The position numbers and the translations under genes were made by a program. Shown here in pieces: positions 7,152-15,715 of a stretch of DNA of 64,000 nucleotides. Under the pieces are notes generated by a model, which saw nothing but the letters and a program-made list of their open reading frames with translations, ran no database searches and was not told the DNA's origin. The stretch comes from an uncultured Candidatus Cloacimonas sp. (GTDB taxonomy: Bacteria; Cloacimonadota; Cloacimonadia; Cloacimonadales; Cloacimonadaceae). Location of the stretch: positions 11,250 through 75,249 of the forward strand of contig CAZNGW010000001.1 in assembly GCA_964572925.1 (NCBI GenBank), written 5' to 3'. Numbering within the stretch: the stretch's first letter is position 1; each line of letters opens with the position of its first letter.

Positions 7152-7929
7152 AAAGCCTCTTGAGCCAACTGCGTCTCTTGTGTCTGTGTTGAGGTCTGTA
7201 AATGTGAACATATTGATAAGGGATGGATTTATGATTTGCTATTGAGGCAGGATATTCGTAAAAAAGAAGATGAGCTGTATGATTGTCGATCTGGGACTCC
7301 ACTTCGTCTCTGGCTTCAAAGTAGGAATAATATGCTCCACGTACATGATCGTCCGAGGCAATAAAATGTGTCCAACCGTTGTTAACCAACTCCCAGGCAG
7401 TGTTTTTAACCTTTTCGCCATATAAACCCAGAAGGCTGCCAGAATTGGTTTGTATATATACGTTTCTTTGCCCCAGGAAGCCAGCCCGGGCAGGTTTGCG
7501 CATTATGCTTACGTAACGTTCCGCATGTGCCAGAATCGGTTTATAGCCAGCTCTTAATAGAGGGAAGATGTTATTGTAAAAATCGTTGGGAAGCCCGTTC
7601 AATTCACTTTCTATGAGGACGTAAGGGCTATCACCCAGAGTTAAATTGTGTTTTTTAATATCTATCAGGATATCCGATTGCAGGAAGATTTCGAATCCTG
7701 GTATCAAGGTTATGGGGATTCCGGCTTCCTTCGCTTTGTCCGCTACAAAAGTGAATTTTCGATCATACTCAGCCCGGTCGTATTGATAATGTCCACGAAA
7801 ATAGTGCGATGTAAGATAAGCGCTTTTAATTCCTCCTTCAGCCATTTTAGTAAGCTGTTTCAGGGAATCCGCGATATCTTTGGAACCATCATCAATATTT
7901 GGCAAGAGATGAGTATGAATATCAATCAT
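7144..7929 (-). CDS. CpsB/CapC-like PHP-family protein-tyrosine phosphatase
   Basis: MIDIHTHLLPNIDDGS, TSHY, PILAHAERY, FIASDDH. Confidence 0.9.
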   Translation of the reverse strand: MIDIHTHLLPNIDDGSKDIADSLKQLTKMAEGGIKSAYLTSHYFRGHYQYDRAEYDRKFTFVADKAKEAGIPITLIPGFEIFLQSDILIDIKKHNLTLGDSPYVLIESELNGLPNDFYNNIFPLLRAGYKPILAHAERYVSIMRKPARAGFLGQRNVYIQTNSGSLLGLYGEKVKNTAWELVNNGWTHFIASDDHVRGAYYSYFEARDEVESQIDNHTAHLLFYEYPASIANHKSIPYQYVHIYRPQHRHKRRSWLKRLFA

Positions 7930-7932
7930 CTT

Positions 7933-8814
7933 TTAAGGCAGTTTCTCCTTTATCATTGTAACGAACTCAGCCAGAACGGCATTGTTTGGGAATGGTTTGA
8001 TCATGCGGGTAGATTCTTCCAAGAGGTTTTCGGCGGTTTTACGGGCTTTGTCGAAACCCAGAAGACCTGTGTAACTGGCTTTGGATACGGGAGTATAATC
8101 GTCATCGAGGCCATCGCTTCCTCTGGCATAATCTGCTTCAATATCTTCGATCATCTGATAGGCCAGGCCAAGATTGAGAGCATAGGCATTCATAATCTGC
8201 CGGGTGTTGTCATCCGCGCCGGCAAGCATGCAAGCAATATCAGCAGAAGCTTGCAAGAGTGAGCCTACCTTTTTCATGTCGATATAGCGAAGAGTATTAA
8301 TTTTCATTACTTTGCGGCGATTTGCCAGATCTACTGCCTGCCCACCCACCATTCCATAACTCTTGGCATAAACAGAAAGGATGCGGGTCGCTTCCAGAGC
8401 CATAGTTGAATCGCTGATCTCTCCCATAATCTCGAAAGATAGCGTATATAAAGAATCGCCGGCCAAAATGGCCACCGCGTTGTCATGTTCCAAATGCAAC
8501 GCAGGATGACCGCGGCGGCTTGTCTGGTTCATCAAGCTGGGCAGATCATCATGGACCAAAGCAGCATTATGAAGCAGTTCCACAGCAACTGCAGCCTTAA
8601 CAGCATCATTTAAACGGCGGTTTTTTTTGAATCCAGTCAGCATTTCAAAAATGGATAAAAGCAGTAATGGCCTCCATCTTTTCCCACCTGGAAACACTGC
8701 GCTATCTATGGCTTTTTTCAGTTCCTTAGCATGTTTGTTATCGTGCGACAATGCCTGAACCAGACCTGCTTCGATCAACTCTAACCTTGTCTCGAAATAC
8801 TTCTGTAGCAGCAA
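7933..8814 (-). CDS. Polyprenyl-diphosphate synthase family protein (IspA-like) with degenerate Asp-rich motifs
   Basis: GGKRWRP, ELLHNAALVHDDLP, RRG, AILAGDSL, GMVGGQAVDL. Confidence 0.85.
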   Translation of the reverse strand: MLLQKYFETRLELIEAGLVQALSHDNKHAKELKKAIDSAVFPGGKRWRPLLLLSIFEMLTGFKKNRRLNDAVKAAVAVELLHNAALVHDDLPSLMNQTSRRGHPALHLEHDNAVAILAGDSLYTLSFEIMGEISDSTMALEATRILSVYAKSYGMVGGQAVDLANRRKVMKINTLRYIDMKKVGSLLQASADIACMLAGADDNTRQIMNAYALNLGLAYQMIEDIEADYARGSDGLDDDYTPVSKASYTGLLGFDKARKTAENLLEESTRMIKPFPNNAVLAEFVTMIKEKLP

Positions 8815-8932
8815 AGCTTTCTCCCTATTTTGGCATGAGATTATTCTATATATCCATTTCTTTATCTACTAATGAAGATACCCCTGATTTGTCAAGTTAT
8901 TTCCGTGAAAAAATCAGTTTTCCGGATAGTTT

Positions 8933-10816
8933 TTACAGAGATAGTTTCAGGCTGAGATAAAAATCCCTGCCAGGCTCTGGATAGCCATACTCACCTTGGT
9001 AGTCTGCATCGAGGATATTCTCCAGACCCATTTCAAATCCGAGCGACCGATATGGAATTTGCAGGCTTACATCGTGTTTCCAGTAGGAATCGAGACTGTG
9101 ATACAAACCATTGTCATCCTGGGAGAGTCTCTGGTGACGGTAGGCAGAGTTCAGATTGATAACTGCCTTCAAGGGAAGTTTCAGGCTCTGGCTGAGATCA
9201 ATGGTATGGGGTGGGGTTTCGGTAAGCCGGTAATCACTTTGCTTCAGATAATCCATCCAACAATAGCCAAGGGCAACCTGATAGGCTTTTGCCGGAGTAA
9301 TCACCAATTCAGTTTCAAGGCCGAAGGAATCAACTTTGTATACGTTGGCGTAGTGTCCAGCAAAAAGGTCAATCAGATTACGGGTGCGATTATAGAATAC
9401 ACTTGATGAAATGCTTGCAGTTTTACCAAACAGTGGCTGAAAGTGGCTTATTTCTGCTTTCAAAGCATTTTGCGGTTTTAGTTCAGGATTGCCCTTACTT
9501 GCCGAGAACAGCTGTCTCATAGTAGGTTGAGCACTGGCCAGGCCCAAAGCGAACTTGCTGGTTACACCGGATTTTCCAAGATATTCCAAGCCGCAAGCTG
9601 GTTCCGGCAGCAAATGCGTTTTACCGGTTTCACTATTGGTGCTAAAAACAGTGCCCAAAGCAGCATTAAACTTCAACCCGTCAAGCAGGGGAAGAGCATA
9701 CTGGGCAAAGGCAGAATGTATCGACACCCTGTTATCTGTCCATTCCAGATAGTAATCATTATCCTTACGGGTAGTGAGTAGCAGTTCACCCCGATAACCC
9801 AAATCAAGGGTTTGGCCTTCCCCAAACTGCATTTTCAGCTTGGGAACGAAGCTATAACTATCGGTGCGCATACTGGAATCGAGACTAAGAACTTCACTCC
9901 CATTCAGATAGTTAAATTCCAGCAAGCGATCCTCTGCGCGGTCTTGTGCCAGAAGAATCGTGAACAGCATGCGTTCACTAAACTGGAATTTTCCGCTGAG
10001 GCCAGCACTTTCTCTCAGCCAATTGTCGTAGCGTCGTCTCTTGCGTTCATAAATGGAGGAGGGAAGATTCTTGTCGTCCATCCTGCTGAGATTGAAATCA
10101 AATGCCAGTTCGTGAAAGTCCAGTAGATCATAACGGACTCCTCCATTCAAGTTGTATCTTGATCCATCGCTATTATCCCGAACCCCACCACTTTCAAAGG
10201 AAGTTGGTAGAAAATCACTGGAAAGCATAAAACCGTCAGTTTTTTGCCAAGCCCCTGAAAGACTGTAACTGAGATTATCGAAACTGTGCGAAGTGCTCAA
10301 CCGGTAGTCCTGGGCATTGTTCCTTCTGAAAACGGTCTCAAAGCTGAGCCAGTTGTCCCGGGAAGGACTATTGGTGATTATGTTAACCACTCCGCCCATG
10401 CTGTTTGAGCCAAATTGGGGAGATACCGGACCTTTGATGATCTGGATTTCCCTGATATCCAGCACTGATAGCTTGCTTAGATCAACATTTCCAAAATAAC
10501 CGTTATTGAGAGGTCTGCCATCAACCATTACCTTCACTTCGTTTTTGCGAAAACCACGGAGTCTCAGGTTGCTTTCGTCTTTACTGCCCAAAGTTGCGCT
10601 GATCCCGGGTAAGTTTTGCAGAGCATCCTTCAAGCTGGAGGCCTGGGAGGAAGGGCTTTCCACTCGCAAGAGCTGGCCAATCGCTTCAGAAGGGCTATTG
10701 ATAATAACCCTGACAGTTGGTAAAGTCCAGGTTTTCAGGCTGTCAGGACTTTGCCTGGCTGTCAGGCTAAATACCAGGAGACTGCAAAACAGAGCCGGGA
10801 TCAGCTTTCGGAACAT
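8933..10816 (-). CDS. TonB-dependent outer-membrane receptor
   Basis: Signal peptide, TonB-box-like TLPTVRV, plug motifs LRLRGF...VMVDGRP and IQIIKGPVSPQFGSNSMGGVVNIIT, C-terminal ENILD...PGRDFYLSL beta-strand. Confidence 0.93.
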   Translation of the reverse strand: MFRKLIPALFCSLLVFSLTARQSPDSLKTWTLPTVRVIINSPSEAIGQLLRVESPSSQASSLKDALQNLPGISATLGSKDESNLRLRGFRKNEVKVMVDGRPLNNGYFGNVDLSKLSVLDIREIQIIKGPVSPQFGSNSMGGVVNIITNSPSRDNWLSFETVFRRNNAQDYRLSTSHSFDNLSYSLSGAWQKTDGFMLSSDFLPTSFESGGVRDNSDGSRYNLNGGVRYDLLDFHELAFDFNLSRMDDKNLPSSIYERKRRRYDNWLRESAGLSGKFQFSERMLFTILLAQDRAEDRLLEFNYLNGSEVLSLDSSMRTDSYSFVPKLKMQFGEGQTLDLGYRGELLLTTRKDNDYYLEWTDNRVSIHSAFAQYALPLLDGLKFNAALGTVFSTNSETGKTHLLPEPACGLEYLGKSGVTSKFALGLASAQPTMRQLFSASKGNPELKPQNALKAEISHFQPLFGKTASISSSVFYNRTRNLIDLFAGHYANVYKVDSFGLETELVITPAKAYQVALGYCWMDYLKQSDYRLTETPPHTIDLSQSLKLPLKAVINLNSAYRHQRLSQDDNGLYHSLDSYWKHDVSLQIPYRSLGFEMGLENILDADYQGEYGYPEPGRDFYLSLKLSL

Positions 10817-10820
10817 TTGA

Positions 10821-11630
10821 TCAATAATCGGTAAGAACCGTTGACTGATATCCCGTCATACTTTCCGGAATGGTCACATTGAGGCTGGAAAGCGTATTGG
10901 GAGCCAGCGGGAAGTTAAAAACCTGGGCATCACCACCCAGTACAATCATTCTGGCAAGTTTTTTGAACTTCTTGTGCGAACCATCCATACTATCGTTAAA
11001 AGCGGGGAAGGTAGTTTTTTCTGAATTTAGGAGATAATAACCATCGTTGATCTGATCAAGGGTATAGTCCATCGTATAACCATCAACGGCGATCAAACGA
11101 ATCGTATCGGCGGTAGAAATGCCCTGCATCAGGTCGCTGAGCTTGATTGCGTCTTCCATCGTGCTTGACCAGTTTTCCACCGAGTGGATGGTAAGTCCTT
11201 TAAGTTCCACGGTTTTTTCGCTTCTACCGCTTTGCACTTCCACTTTTCGATACAGACGCACTGTGCCGGTGTTTTTCACCTTGAAAGCGCTGGGCAGGCT
11301 GAGAGAAGCCGGGAACCAGGTTTTACGGTTGTCAGAAGGAACCAGGAAGCCTTCTTTGAAAAGCTCCCAGTTCAGATCATAACCTGCATTAACGGATAAA
11401 CGAGGGCTCCAGGCATCGCTATCGGCAGTCACTATTTCGTAGGCAAAAAGGCCTCGAAAATCGGTAGTATCGGCTGCGGTGGGATCTACTATGTCCCGTA
11501 CAGCGGTTTTGAGGATAAATTGATCAAGTTTGTAACCATAAATATTGGTGTCGGTGGGGTTGTCTTTTTCACTGCATGCGGTGATCAGCAGTAAGACAAG
11601 CATGGTCAATAAAAGCAGGGTTCTTTTCAT
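10821..11630 (-). CDS. Lipoprotein with internal duplication resembling a Cys-less molybdopterin-oxidoreductase (sulfite oxidase/MsrP) catalytic fold
   Basis: Start at 11630 with GGAGG SD; lipobox LITAC; IKLSDLM...IRLIAVDGY...KKFKKLARMIV pattern and a related first repeat. Fold call is by eye. Confidence 0.6.
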   Translation of the reverse strand: MKRTLLLLTMLVLLLITACSEKDNPTDTNIYGYKLDQFILKTAVRDIVDPTAADTTDFRGLFAYEIVTADSDAWSPRLSVNAGYDLNWELFKEGFLVPSDNRKTWFPASLSLPSAFKVKNTGTVRLYRKVEVQSGRSEKTVELKGLTIHSVENWSSTMEDAIKLSDLMQGISTADTIRLIAVDGYTMDYTLDQINDGYYLLNSEKTTFPAFNDSMDGSHKKFKKLARMIVLGGDAQVFNFPLAPNTLSSLNVTIPESMTGYQSTVLTDY

Positions 11631-11817: not shown

Positions 11818-11876
11818 GTTTGATCTTTGTTTCGCTTTGCTTGTTCCACTCTCCCCACCGCTATCTAATCCGTGTG

Positions 11877-11922
11877 CCACCCTCTATCCACCCTTATTAT
11901 AATGAGGGTGGATAGAGCGTGG
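11877..11922. repeat. Intergenic palindromic element, copy 2
   Basis: Perfect 13-bp IR ctctatccaccct (11882-11894) / agggtggatagag (11905-11917), extended by ccac/gtgg; loop tattataatg. Confidence 0.8.
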
Positions 11923-12063
11923 GTAGCGCGTGGAATGAGCGGAGTAAGGAAGGGTTCAAAAGGGGTGTTGAACTGGTTTGATGCAATGGATGGGGCGGAG
12001 AAGTTCGTTGACAGAAACAATGGCTGAAGTTCGTTGGCAATTAGCATAAATAATGGAGAAGCC

Positions 12064-12951
12064 ATGTATAGATATCTTTTTTTAGCCTTTCTGATCGCAG
12101 TTTCGTCAAGCCTGGCAGCCTTGGAGCTCATTTTTCCCGGAGGTGAAAGGCTTGGTTTCACCCCGGACAAACTGCGCAATGAAACTTTGCAAAGCTTTCA
12201 AACTAAGCGGGATAAGGACGGAGCCATGCTCACTGAAAAATGGAGTGGCATCCCACTTTTACCCTGGCTGGAACGGATATATCAAGGATCATGGCAGAGC
12301 TTGAGAGTGCAAAGCCGGGACAATTACATTGTCCATCTTTCCCGCCTGGAGCTTGGTTCTGAAAACTGCTTTCTGGCGCTCAAAAATGGTGATCTGGAGC
12401 TATCAGAATATGACATCAGGGTCATTCACACAGCTAAGCGGGAAAGTGCCTGGGTAAGGAACCTCGCTTCGATCACCCTGGAGGATTTTCAACCCTTACC
12501 CCAGCCCCGGCAATTGCTGCTCTGGGAGAACTGGACTAAAGATAACAAGGCTTTGTTTAACACGGGATCCCTCAGATTGGATGAATTTATGTTGAAGGCT
12601 TTCGGCTTAACAGAAGGTGAACTGCTGCTTTTGGATAGCAAAATGAATCGAATTCGTCTGGAGGTTTCCGGAGAAATGGCCAATGGAACCCTTGAACTTA
12701 ATGGTGAAGGATTTCCCAAACTGGGAGGAAAGGCAGAACAATTGGGGCTCTCGGATTTGGTTTATCTCCAGGCAGGCCACTGCGCTCTGATCAGTAAAAC
12801 CGGCTTGGCTAACCTGACAAAGATTGGCCAGGAATTACGTTGGAATTGGGACGGGAAATACCTTAATAAGGTTAAAACACATAGGCAAAAGATTGAGACT
12901 AATGAATTGCCGTTTTCGCTACCGCAAGGAACCTGGTTGGAACTAAACTGA
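12064..12951 (+). CDS. Exported protein with an N-terminal Cys-less molybdopterin-oxidoreductase-like domain
   Basis: ATG 12064 with GGAG SD; signal peptide; WSGIPLLPWLE...VQSRDNY...LALKNGD...IRVI...WVRNLASITL parallels W.GV.L..ll...DgY...LA...nG...lRlv...vKwl..I. Confidence 0.65.
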   Translation: MYRYLFLAFLIAVSSSLAALELIFPGGERLGFTPDKLRNETLQSFQTKRDKDGAMLTEKWSGIPLLPWLERIYQGSWQSLRVQSRDNYIVHLSRLELGSENCFLALKNGDLELSEYDIRVIHTAKRESAWVRNLASITLEDFQPLPQPRQLLLWENWTKDNKALFNTGSLRLDEFMLKAFGLTEGELLLLDSKMNRIRLEVSGEMANGTLELNGEGFPKLGGKAEQLGLSDLVYLQAGHCALISKTGLANLTKIGQELRWNWDGKYLNKVKTHRQKIETNELPFSLPQGTWLELN

Positions 12952-14319
12952 TCAATACATTATGTGCTGCTCTACCAGCATAAACAGCAACTGATCGCAG
13001 ATCTCAGCCACGGCATTAAGTTCGCTCATCTGCAGTGCTAAGGCAGAATCTGCCCCAGTGCTTTTAAGGTTGGTAAGATTGGTGTTATAGATGCTTTTAA
13101 AACCTTTGGACTGCAATAATTCAACGTAGGCATCAGCTGAGGCTGAAAAAAGCTTCAGACGAGAAACATATTCACCTTCCCGGCTCATGACCATTATGCG
13201 GAAAATGTAGTCGCTGCTTGCGCTGTCAGCCACCACTTCCAGATCAAGGTCTTGCAGTTTCTTTACCAACAAATCACTATATCCATTTCCTTTGCCGTTA
13301 TTGAAGCTATAGTCCAGATAAGCCTTGGGTCTGGATACCGATAACTGAAGGCTGACCGGAGAAAATTGTAAAATATTCAACATTCTTTTAACCAAAGGAT
13401 TTTCTACCCGGGACAACCAATAATCCTTATCAGGAGTCATTTCGATGAATTGGGGATTGCTGAAGTCCGTAATCCTGCGAATGATCAGTTCAGCCTGGCC
13501 GGTGTTGTCGGATAAAGCCTGCCTGACAATGTCACCCTTACCGTTTCGGAAGGAGAACACAATCGGAAAAGACCTTGCAGAATAGGTTTGATTGTCTTTG
13601 ACATAGGCTGTTTGAACACCAATAATTTGCTTTTCCCGCTGCTTTGCAACCACCTTGATCTGGTTCTGGCTGTAACTCAGGCTGATCATCTCGGGTAAGC
13701 GATTGAAACGGAATAGCAATTCATTGTAGATATTTACTGATTTACCTGAATAAGAAGTCCTCAGGTCAAGGTCGGCAAAATCCACAATTAGTTCCATAGC
13801 CTTCAACAGGGATGTGATCCCAGGCGCAATGTCAGTGGTGGCCTGGTCGAACTCCTGCAAAAAGACTTTTGCCTGTTCAATAGCCAGATCACGCTGTTTG
13901 AACCGCCATGTCATATACTCGCTTTTAGATAGCCGGTAATATGCCCAGTAATCGGTTTTATTCTGATAGCTGCCTGCCAATTGGATATTGGACAGTTTGC
14001 TTCGGCTCGAGCTGCGAATCTGATTTATGATCTCAGCGCTGGGGATACCGTTTGCCTCCATCTCTTTCAGGGATACCTCAGAATCAAGGGTTACGTTTAT
14101 TTGAGTGGATATCTCTTTCAAAGCATTGTCTCTGGCCAGATCAAGATAATCCGGTGCTTTGCGTGATATGCGCACCACTGCACTGTAATAGCCAGGGTCA
14201 AGGGGATTCTGATTGATCCACTGAGGTTCTTTTTTACCTATACTACAAGCGGAAATCCAGATTAAAACCAGGAAATATGGCAAAGAACGGACGGCTAATC
14301 TCAGACTGGGATGGCTCAA
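12952..14319 (-). CDS. LPP20-like lipoprotein
   Basis: Lipobox ISAC; PQWI...ARDNALKEISTQINVTLDS...YWAYYRLSK pattern typical of LPP20 domains. Confidence 0.6.
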   Translation of the reverse strand: MSHPSLRLAVRSLPYFLVLIWISACSIGKKEPQWINQNPLDPGYYSAVVRISRKAPDYLDLARDNALKEISTQINVTLDSEVSLKEMEANGIPSAEIINQIRSSSRSKLSNIQLAGSYQNKTDYWAYYRLSKSEYMTWRFKQRDLAIEQAKVFLQEFDQATTDIAPGITSLLKAMELIVDFADLDLRTSYSGKSVNIYNELLFRFNRLPEMISLSYSQNQIKVVAKQREKQIIGVQTAYVKDNQTYSARSFPIVFSFRNGKGDIVRQALSDNTGQAELIIRRITDFSNPQFIEMTPDKDYWLSRVENPLVKRMLNILQFSPVSLQLSVSRPKAYLDYSFNNGKGNGYSDLLVKKLQDLDLEVVADSASSDYIFRIMVMSREGEYVSRLKLFSASADAYVELLQSKGFKSIYNTNLTNLKSTGADSALALQMSELNAVAEICDQLLFMLVEQHIMY

Positions 14320-15584
14320 TTCAAATAGCTCCTGGCTATACTTACGATGGCAGAGGCCATTTCTCGCAGAGCTGTAGCAGCCATCTCACTTTCATTAGGA
14401 GGGAAAGGTTCCGCCTTGTTCATCAAGGTTTTCAGGCTTTGGTTCAGGGCTCGGTCATCTCCTGAAATCTTACGGCACCAGCTCTCAGACCAGGGATTTT
14501 TGGCCTCGATTGTCTCTTGCAACATGATTTTACCGGTTTCAACATCCAGAATACTAAACGAACCGGATACATTCACGCCGGCAGTTTTGGTGAACTTGCG
14601 ATATTGGCAGCTTACTTCACCCCAGACGTCTCGCTCTTTAAGGTTACCCATTTCATCTGTATATTTCTCTTTGCCGGTAACCACTTTGGCTTTAACTTCC
14701 TGGTTTACGCTTACGGTGCGTTCCTGAGCCTGGTTGATTTGCAGGATGCGCCCAGTGAGGATCTCATGTGCCCCGAGGATTTGCCCCAGTTTTACAGTGC
14801 TTGCTTCACTTACCAATCCTGAGGCGTTAAGCTGTTGTTCTGCGATCACGGCATCCATCTGGTTACGGGAAATAATCTCGATGAACTCGCTGCCTGCGGT
14901 TACATTGAGGATTTGGCTGATAATCTGGTCGGTTAGCAGTTCAGAGAGCGCCCCATAATGATTACGGGTTGCGCTTTTATCTTCAAAAGGCTGAACAGCG
15001 AGTCTTTTCACAGCCAGTTTGCGGCTTTGCTCGTATTTTAACGAGGCATCTTTGTAATCCGGGATCAGGCTCATGGCAGCCTTGAATTCCAAGGCAGCCT
15101 TCTTTTGTGTATCTAGATCGTTATTCATTCTGGCAAAGCGGATTCCGGACTGATAATGCGTTTCTGCGGCGTTTTCCTTGCTGCTGGAGATCTTTTCGCT
15201 AAAATCTGGGATATTCAGAACCACTCTATAACCAGAATTGGGGTTCACCAGAACCGGCAAAGATCTGATTTGCGAAGCCAGGTTATCCAGATTTTTATAT
15301 TCCCGGTAGATAGAGTCCCATTTACCGTTATCCTGGCTTTGCATATACTGGGCTACCCTCGCTTCGCCATTTTCCACAGTTCTATTCCAAGCCTGAACGA
15401 GCAGATCCTGAGCCTTCATGTTGTCGGGTCGAAGCCGAAGTGAATTTACACTCTCCAAAACTGCATTTTCATATAAGCCCTTCTGATAGTTCTTGGTTGC
15501 ACGGCGATACATTCTGCCGTATTGCGAGCAGGAAAACATTGCAAGCGATGCAATTAGCACTGAAGTCAGCAAGCTGGCTCTCAT
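14316..15584 (-). CDS. Lipoprotein with TPR-like N-terminus and CsgG/HfaB-like domain
   Basis: Start 15584 with AGAGGAG SD; lipobox MFSC; RLAVQPFEDK...IEIISRNQMDAVIAEQQL...KLGQILGAHEILTG. Confidence 0.65.
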   Translation of the reverse strand: MRASLLTSVLIASLAMFSCSQYGRMYRRATKNYQKGLYENAVLESVNSLRLRPDNMKAQDLLVQAWNRTVENGEARVAQYMQSQDNGKWDSIYREYKNLDNLASQIRSLPVLVNPNSGYRVVLNIPDFSEKISSSKENAAETHYQSGIRFARMNNDLDTQKKAALEFKAAMSLIPDYKDASLKYEQSRKLAVKRLAVQPFEDKSATRNHYGALSELLTDQIISQILNVTAGSEFIEIISRNQMDAVIAEQQLNASGLVSEASTVKLGQILGAHEILTGRILQINQAQERTVSVNQEVKAKVVTGKEKYTDEMGNLKERDVWGEVSCQYRKFTKTAGVNVSGSFSILDVETGKIMLQETIEAKNPWSESWCRKISGDDRALNQSLKTLMNKAEPFPPNESEMAATALREMASAIVSIARSYLN

Positions 15585-15715
15585 GTATGGACTCCTCTGA
15601 AAGGATAGATGTTTCATTTCTGAAAGACTATTCTGGATATCAGGCAGTTTGTGTCAAGCCCCACTTTCAGGATTAGAAATACTGCTATGGATGGATTAGC
15701 ACAAGGAGGCTCAAG

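Follow-up and report, generated by a model that had tools for sequence, protein, structure and literature searches.

The molybdenum and tungsten cofactors (Moco and Tuco) are held by textbooks to be too unstable for sharing, and each organism that uses them is therefore expected to make its own. Moco uptake has been documented only for Caenorhabditis elegans (PMC7849362), a eukaryote in which finished, protein-protected Moco is taken from other organisms; no transport machinery is known for it, nor any homologue of the parts described here. In a literature search, we found no description of a bacterial Moco importer or transporter, nor of a Moco-riboswitch-associated energy-coupling factor (ECF) or TonB system with pterin-fold binders. 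Here we describe P0001, the product of a gene at positions 12064-12951 (+) of a 64,000-nt stretch of DNA (the window) from an uncultured Candidatus Cloacimonas (GenBank assembly GCA_964572925.1, contig CAZNGW010000001.1, positions 11,250 to 75,249). On balance, P0001 probably serves in the periplasm as a soluble binder of a molybdopterin-type cofactor (a Mo- or W-pyranopterin), as suggested by its fold, synteny, riboswitch linkage and phyletic pattern, with both the ligand and the location predicted. A first-pass annotation of the sequence had proposed a periplasmic carrier for imported cofactor, a role that gains support from comparative genomics.

The proposed system resembles B12 uptake (BtuB, the surface lipoprotein BtuG and periplasmic BtuF; bioRxiv 10.1101/2022.11.17.516869) in having a riboswitch-repressed receptor and lipoprotein, a soluble binder and an ATP-driven importer, in hosts that need the cofactor without making it. 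Unlike in B12 uptake, the binders have the SUOX fold and not that of a beta-propeller or class III substrate-binding protein, the riboswitch senses Moco/Tuco, and the substrate is predicted. A second likeness is to the riboswitch-controlled ECF importer YkoEDC, since the S component found here is in the YkoE Pfam family, PF09819. To our knowledge, a separate periplasmic binding protein is not known for ECF importers.

For P0001 itself, the closest described proteins are the SUOX molybdoenzymes (YedY/MsrP, PDB 1xdq; SorA, 2blf; chicken sulfite oxidase, 1sox; PF00174) and PruR (Agrobacterium tumefaciens Atu3496; PDB 7kos, 7kou, 7kom, 7kp2 and 7rkb; PMC11194511). P0001 shares the cofactor-binding fold of the former (Z 11-15), and MsrP and SorA are also periplasmic, as predicted for P0001. 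Unlike these enzymes, P0001 lacks the Mo-ligand Cys, has a short hairpin, has neither a dimerisation nor a haem domain, carries a Sec rather than a Tat signal and falls under any Pfam threshold. Given the missing Cys and Tat signal, we do not regard it as a SUOX enzyme. With PruR, its best structural match, it has in common a Sec-type signal, a truncated SUOX fold of ~130 residues and the absence of the Mo-ligand Cys and of catalytic partner domains; its conserved Y88 and W130 are the probable counterparts of the Tyr and Trp between which PruR holds the pterin ring. However, the two are only 13-17% identical, and P0001 has D/K for the P-W of PruR, Asp for its hydrogen-bonding Asn, a second, degenerate domain and no DcpA-type signalling partner. 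PruR is from Proteobacteria and linked to cyclic di-GMP control, whereas the family studied here is from Cloacimonadota and the genomic ties of P0001 are to a Moco riboswitch, a TonB receptor and an ECF importer. New here are an analysis of the soluble protein by fold and by residue, the ECF paralogue, the operon uniting all parts in other Cloacimonadota, the split between clades A and B with motif loss, and the phylum-wide pattern.

Fold and predicted binding pocket of P0001

The open reading frame (ORF) of P0001 (12064-12951, +) is open and intact, encodes 295 aa and is preceded by GGAG 6 nt 5´ of the ATG. By itself, P0001 gave no sequence match in Pfam, NCBIfam or the PDB (phmmer), even at E=10, and the ESM Atlas returned nothing usable. 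A library of 1.8 billion sequences contained 64 representative homologues, here termed the SUOX2 family, in which P0001 belongs to a genus-specific clade A; counts given below out of 57 refer to the aligned members. PF00174 (Oxidored_molyb) was matched by 42 of the 57 (E<=1; best E 1.5e-11), and the family profile matched SorA (E 1.4e-4, SorA residues 123-225) and PruR 7kp2 (E 1.9e-4) in the PDB. In comparisons of an AlphaFold2 model of P0001 (predicted local distance difference test, pLDDT, 93) with known structures using VIA, residues 14-143 of the predicted model matched PruR 7kom with a Z of 15.1 (root-mean-square deviation, rmsd, 2.4 over 120/134 residues) and chicken sulfite oxidase with a Z of 15.0 (rmsd 3.0 over 129). 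The same model gave a Z of 13.6-14.0 with PruR 7rkb, 7kos, 7kou and 7kp2 and of 11-15 with SoxC, plant sulfite oxidase, SorA and YedY. For the N-terminal domain (residues ~20-145; 12121-12498, +), Foldseek gave an E of 4.9e-7. Judged by the model, this domain has the SUOX fold, the fold of Moco-binding domains. The molybdopterin-oxidoreductase-like domain of the first-pass annotation is thus borne out by the family matches and the model fold; it is not detectable from the P0001 sequence alone.

The first-pass annotation had also listed a series of motifs, all of which are present (WSGIPL at residues 60-65, RDNY at 85-88, LALKNG at 104-109, IRVI at 118-121 and WVRNL at 130-134), with FQTKRDKDGAMLTEK, residues 45-59, directly before WSGIPL. 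The Mo-ligand Cys, already noted as missing there, is replaced by D50/K51 in alignments to YedY and PruR. In the hidden Markov model (HMM) alignment, the P-W motif of Vibrio cholerae PruR (TETPWTQG), equated by the PruR authors with the SUOX Cys position (PMC11194511), aligns with the SUOX2 motif T-e-R-e-K-d-G, and P0001 has D50-K51 at this place. The spacing back from the conserved W-x-G of Escherichia coli YedY puts the Mo-Cys at the same two residues. Any Cys between positions 25 and 66 is found in just 4 of the 57 SUOX2 members and never in a conserved column. A conserved Cys column that might supply an alternative ligand was found nowhere in the 57 sequences, and the mature chain is entirely Cys-free in 14 of them.

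In place of the Mo-Cys hairpin, the family has a hairpin T47-x-R49-x-K51-x-G53, with T47 in 54, R49 in 45, K51 in 47 and G53 in 38 of the 57 members. The predicted pocket residues are D86 (56/57), Y88 (54/57), R119 and W130 (57/57 each). PruR contacts the pterin ring through an Asn, a Tyr and a Trp (N102, Y104 and W160 of the A. tumefaciens protein; PMC11194511). In HMM alignments, the N..Y of these contacts align to D86..Y88, and LRLVVP and YWVKHL of SorA align to R119 and W130, respectively; W130 is the likely equivalent of the PruR Trp, given its position and the SorA alignment. All clade A proteins retain the T-x-R-x-K hairpin and D86, Y88, R119 and W130 in the N-terminal domain.

The signal peptide occupies residues 1-19 (12064-12120, +). 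In the N-terminus (MYRYLFLAFLIAVSSSLAA, followed by LE), a single basic residue and a hydrophobic core are accompanied by an A-x-A-like (small-x-small) site, and there is neither RR nor a lipobox Cys, in agreement with the cleavable-type signal without lipobox or twin-Arg motif that had been annotated. As read from the sequence, this is a classical Sec/SPI signal. Across the family, RR occurs in the N-terminus of a single member and a lipobox-like motif in two of the 57. A Tat signal or an alternative ligand, which the first-pass annotation had named as grounds for rejecting the carrier proposal, was not seen, the latter judged by conserved Cys columns.

The C-terminal half (residues ~146-295; 12499-12948, +) is, with moderate confidence, a degenerate or diverged second SUOX/PruR-like domain, a call that combines several lines of evidence. 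The N and C halves of SUOX2 matched each other in hhalign (probability 89%, E 2.2e-6). When the C domain of P0001 was modelled separately (pLDDT 91.7) and compared with 48,161 chains using VIA with no Foldseek prefilter, the first matches were PruR 7kp2 (Z 5.8) and 7rkb (Z 5.2), followed by SoxC, SorT and nitrate reductase; Z values of 5-6 are weak. We limit the call to moderate because Foldseek alone, run with the isolated C domain, gave no match at E<=1e-3. A C-domain motif, P-x-G-M-W, pairs in the alignment with the N-domain motif of W130; each of the 12 relatives from ECF operons (2 B, 2 F and 8 O) keeps it, and it is absent from all 17 clade A proteins.

The genome with P0001 (coded G000; codes in G, C and L denote genomes, contigs and loci) encodes a further Cys-less exported protein with the SUOX fold, which belongs to a separate subfamily. 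This YedY/MsrP-like protein of 245 aa (contig C5:21029-21766; L046:730-1467, +) is the sole canonical PF00174 protein of the genome (E 1e-31), has a Sec-like hydrophobic N-terminus and carries Ser at the YedY Mo-Cys position (RLTSVTRWS versus RMRCVEAWS).

Gene neighbourhoods and cofactor supply

The region 5´ of P0001 consists of a 270-nt spacer followed by a Moco/Tuco riboswitch on the opposite strand (RF01055; 11674-11794, -; 58.3 bits versus a gathering score of 36). This riboswitch leads a divergent operon of a lipoprotein (10821-11630, -) and a TonB-dependent receptor (TBDR; 8933-10816, -). The translated lipoprotein has the lipobox LLITAC and appears to be a distant relative of the same fold family. 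BLASTP of P0001 against it gave no significant match, and the kinship was seen only by profile-profile comparison, in which the lipoprotein family matched the SUOX2 N domain (hhalign probability 83.5%, E 8.3e-6). The receptor is of BtuB-like size and has a Plug domain (PF07715, E 4e-21); its best NCBIfam similarity is to BtuB, far under the cut-off. No own-strand riboswitch or other Rfam element was found 5´ of P0001 at the gathering threshold. An alignment of seven intergenic regions revealed conserved TTGACA boxes back-to-back in the clade A spacer, and the box upstream of the clade A genes (12008-12013, +) is likely the -35 element of their own promoter. The clade A intergenic region is as short as ~100 nt in relatives. 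In the window, a ~190-nt insertion between the divergent promoters contains a ~45-nt perfect palindrome (11874-11923; CCACCCTCTATCCACCC...GGGTGGATAGAG), with at least eight further copies in the genome in the manner of repetitive extragenic palindromic (REP) sequences or miniature inverted-repeat transposable elements (MITE).

We searched 40 relatives and counted 41 genomes, of which 35 have SUOX2, with two copies in nearly every Cloacimonas; a search for loci with a 10-sequence SUOX2 alignment gave seven. The maximum-likelihood tree has two sides, each with an SH-like approximate likelihood ratio test (SH-aLRT) value of 100, the long-branched, genus-specific clade A with P0001 versus all others. 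In 15 of the 15 Cloacimonas loci with sufficient flank, the TBDR, lipoprotein and Moco riboswitch lie in this order on one strand, divergent from the clade A gene. More broadly, a Moco riboswitch lies within ~3 kb of a SUOX2 copy in 28 of the 35 SUOX2-bearing genomes. Co-occurrence with the TBDR-lipoprotein pair and with Moco-related features, two checks named along with the carrier proposal, was thus found.

The second Cloacimonas paralogue, SUOX2_B, is part of an operon EcfS - SUOX2_B - fused EcfAA´ - EcfT (contig C87 of G000; also G019). The EcfS proteins of SUOX2 operons belong to PF09819, the YkoE family. Other Cloacimonadota genera have a single SUOX2 copy, with the riboswitch on the same strand as operon leader; the gene is inside riboswitch-led operons in 12 genomes of these genera and divergently beside the riboswitch in G030. 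One arrangement, riboswitch - EcfS - SUOX2 - EcfA - EcfA´ - EcfT, was seen in G022, which is without the TBDR, while G021 has the receptor gene between EcfA´ and EcfT. Larger operons in G025, G029, G034, G037 and G039 read riboswitch - lipoprotein - EcfS - SUOX2 - NPP - small protein - EcfA - EcfA´ - TBDR - EcfT. Here NPP denotes a type I phosphodiesterase/nucleotide pyrophosphatase (PF01663) of ~425 aa, and the next protein, ~134 aa, is of unassigned family; both lie between SUOX2 and EcfA (L038:9732-11024, -; L037:3986-5269, +; L039:9768-11036, -; L041:8455-9738, -; L045:2937-4217, +). Tblastn detected no homologues in G000 of NPP, of the ~134-aa protein or of a riboswitch-linked aldehyde dehydrogenase found in G019. 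Beside SUOX2 in ~30 loci, we found no DcpA-like GGDEF-EAL or sensor-kinase partner; the neighbours were lipoprotein, TBDR or ECF parts.

The gene content of the host indicates that it requires a Mo/W cofactor and cannot make it. G000 is a Candidatus Cloacimonas assembly of 2.72 Mb in 149 contigs, 99.8% complete, in which MoaC, MoeA_N, the MoaA C-terminal domain and MoaE were not found by searches that were positive in 11 of 14 control genomes; CinA is its sole PF00994 match. The predicted users of the cofactor comprise two AOR-family genes and three xanthine-dehydrogenase-family genes with a [2Fe-2S] subunit, and we did not find a DMSO-reductase-family enzyme in the genome. Late-acting proteins are present, namely XdhC, MobB and a MobA-like transferase in the xdh cluster. 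A molybdate or tungstate binding protein could not be called in G000, where the SBP_bac_11 matches are too weak and generic to interpret. In none of 19 Cloacimonas genomes did we find MoaC or MoeA_N, and all have AOR.

This pattern extends to an even sample of 121 Cloacimonadota genomes, each at least 85% complete, in which we found SUOX2 in 79, MoaC in 10 and AOR in 86, with SUOX2 and MoaC together in one. The 111 MoaC-negative genomes divide into 72 with SUOX2 and AOR, 27 with neither, six with SUOX2 only and six with AOR only, counts that ignore shared ancestry. In the family-level taxon of the window itself, all nine genomes without SUOX2 are also without AOR, and the SUOX2/AOR pattern repeats in several genera and families. 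The xanthine dehydrogenase cluster of G000 (contig C15; L048:722-8357) contains a MoCoBD subunit, a [2Fe-2S] subunit, a carbamoyltransferase-like protein, a pyridoxal-phosphate enzyme, a MobA-like NTP transferase of 175 aa and a nitroreductase. A late cofactor-tailoring step thus appears to be retained in G000 although the early pathway is missing.

Proposed uptake pathway and competing explanations

If P0001 is a cofactor-binding protein, the parts described above may work as follows. The riboswitch, on sensing cytoplasmic Moco/Tuco, would turn off the outer-membrane receptor and lipoprotein. P0001 would be exported unfolded via Sec and free of cofactor, since with a Sec and not a Tat signal it could not leave the cytoplasm with the cofactor bound. 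Its N domain retains the putative pterin-stacking and hydrogen-bonding residues D86, Y88, R119 and W130, and a basic T-x-R-x-K hairpin replaces the metal-ligating Cys hairpin, so the domain may hold the cofactor rather than catalyse. P0001 would receive cofactor carried over the outer membrane by the adjoining lipoprotein and TonB receptor, protect the labile molecule in the periplasm and pass it to the ECF importer (EcfS, SUOX2_B, EcfAA´ and EcfT; contig C87). We infer both this order of hand-over and separate tasks for paralogues A and B, whereby P0001 would be a free carrier tied to the outer-membrane module and SUOX2_B would be tied to the importer. In the larger operons, NPP might trim dinucleotide forms (molybdopterin guanine and cytosine dinucleotide, MGD and MCD) to the molybdopterin (MPT) form, and in the cytoplasm the MobA-like protein, XdhC and MobB might tailor the cofactor and insert it into AOR- and XDH-family enzymes.

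A wider version of this proposal, which we hold tentatively and at slightly less than an even chance, is that SUOX2 proteins including P0001 are the periplasmic chaperones of a pathway, the first of its kind in bacteria, that takes up finished Mo/W cofactor across the entire envelope. Cloacimonadota lineages would be auxotrophs living on Moco/Tuco released by digester neighbours, and the ancestral tandem domains may clamp both pterins of bis-pterin cofactors. If the uptake proposal is right, the aldehyde and purine oxidoreductases of Cloacimonadota, key syntrophs of anaerobic digesters, would depend on cofactor obtained by cross-feeding. The proposal would also account for the persistence of Moco riboswitches in genomes without moa genes, and it would add nutrient capture to the signalling role of the PruR-type pterin-binding fold. 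SUOX2 offers a concrete, testable periplasmic component, being small, soluble and easily expressed, with a predicted pocket and a Trp fit for fluorescence binding assays.

Several observations weigh against a cofactor-carrying role for P0001. The authors of the PruR study describe its pocket as not long enough to take full Moco (PMC11194511). P0001 is not behind the riboswitch, its promoter region being separate and facing away from the riboswitch operon, and clade A has lost one putative site with the C-domain P-x-G-M-W motif. Clade A also evolves much faster than the genes next to it: within the same loci, its identity to the G000 copy is 28-40%, whereas the lipoprotein reaches 53-74% and the TBDR 45-62%. 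Stops break up the clade A gene in G020; in G015 the gene is separate from the riboswitch/lipoprotein/TBDR locus, and in G004 and G018 no copy was seen next to a riboswitch, so that clade A may be dispensable or may have drifted to another role. Across the phylum sample, MoaC and SUOX2 are both missing from five to six genomes with AOR (the AOR match of G083 falls under the cut-off) and occur together in one genome, and the co-occurrence statistics for SUOX2, MoaC and AOR take no account of shared ancestry. The riboswitch-adjacent copy in G020, a genome that is 75% complete, has seven in-frame stops and is present on two contigs (G020:C2:30473-30973 and G020:C120:1429-1929), which makes it a pseudogene or else an artefact of assembly.

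Some of these observations could be explained if clade A were a relaxed or neo-functionalised duplicate of the ECF-operon protein, no longer in cofactor uptake and serving, for example, a structural role or the binding of another anionic ligand. The long branches and low identity of clade A within one genus, the lost C-domain motif, the stop-ridden copy in G020 and the lack of an adjacent riboswitch in G004, G015 and G018 would all fit. We consider this rather unlikely, however, as 17 genomes have an unbroken ORF, the hairpin T-x-R-x-K and D86, Y88, R119 and W130 are retained across clade A, and adjacency to the riboswitch operon is kept in 15 loci together with the conserved promoter-like box. 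The top structural matches raise another explanation, namely that P0001, Cys-less and Sec-exported like PruR (PMC11194511) and encoded outside riboswitch control, is a PruR-type periplasmic sensor or regulator, which would bind a small excreted pterin of the monapterin or neopterin type and influence a signalling protein in the membrane without taking part in cofactor transport. The signalling partner that this predicts was absent from the ~30 loci, where the neighbours are always transport parts, the P-W signature of PruR is D/K here, and the ancestral position of SUOX2 is inside ECF/TBDR operons, leaving a sensor function improbable.

The remaining two explanations concern what the pocket holds and does. 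The system might import, and P0001 bind, a different species, whether a precursor or breakdown product (cyclic pyranopterin monophosphate, cPMP; metal-free MPT; an oxidised pterin) or a Mo/W oxyanion complex. In other bacteria, transporters for molybdate and tungstate are likewise under Moco riboswitches (PMC3766115), an oxyanion or phosphate could be bound by the basic hairpin with R49 and K51, and the SBP_bac_11 matches in G000 leave room for this. Yet the binding fold is a pterin fold and not an oxyanion-binding one, the NPP of the larger operons points to dinucleotide forms of the cofactor, and neither MoaE (of the MoaD/E-type MPT synthase) nor MoeA was found in G000, so cPMP, metal-free MPT or molybdate could not be used to make active cofactor; we regard a different substrate as unlikely. 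Other molybdoenzyme families use Ser or Asp ligands, and T47 is nearly invariant (54/57), which would suit a true periplasmic enzyme that has Thr47, Lys51 or Asp50 as a non-Cys ligand and is loaded with cofactor outside the cytoplasm. However, all known enzymes of the SUOX fold have the Cys (PMC11194511 and its reference 16), the operons pair SUOX2 with transporters and not with redox partners, and a Pfam search gave no dimerisation or haem domain, making an enzyme very improbable.

Further genes and riboswitches

Downstream of P0001, which is monocistronic, the stop codon abuts that of a convergent LPP20-like gene. This is one of two convergent lipoprotein-like genes (12952-15617, -) encoding an LPP20-domain protein of 455 aa and an LpoB-like-domain protein of 433 aa; we saw no connection of either to the cofactor system. 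The whole 4-kb stretch around P0001 is present in two sludge-metagenome runs, which are probably DNA.

A second Moco riboswitch in G000 (contig C14:4569-4689, -; L034) has no clear downstream ORF; a 680-nt gap is followed by a Kre9-like protein with a type IX secretion system (T9SS) tail. In G019, the second riboswitch (L044:9581-9699) is directly 5´ of the gene for an NAD-type aldehyde dehydrogenase (PF00171; ORF 7876-9501, -), which may be a cofactor-independent stand-in for AOR that is on when cofactor is scarce. Finally, in G021, a cobalamin riboswitch (L026:3306-3483, -) lies 3 kb from the Moco-riboswitch ECF/TBDR operon, and two cofactor-uptake loci may therefore cluster in this genome.

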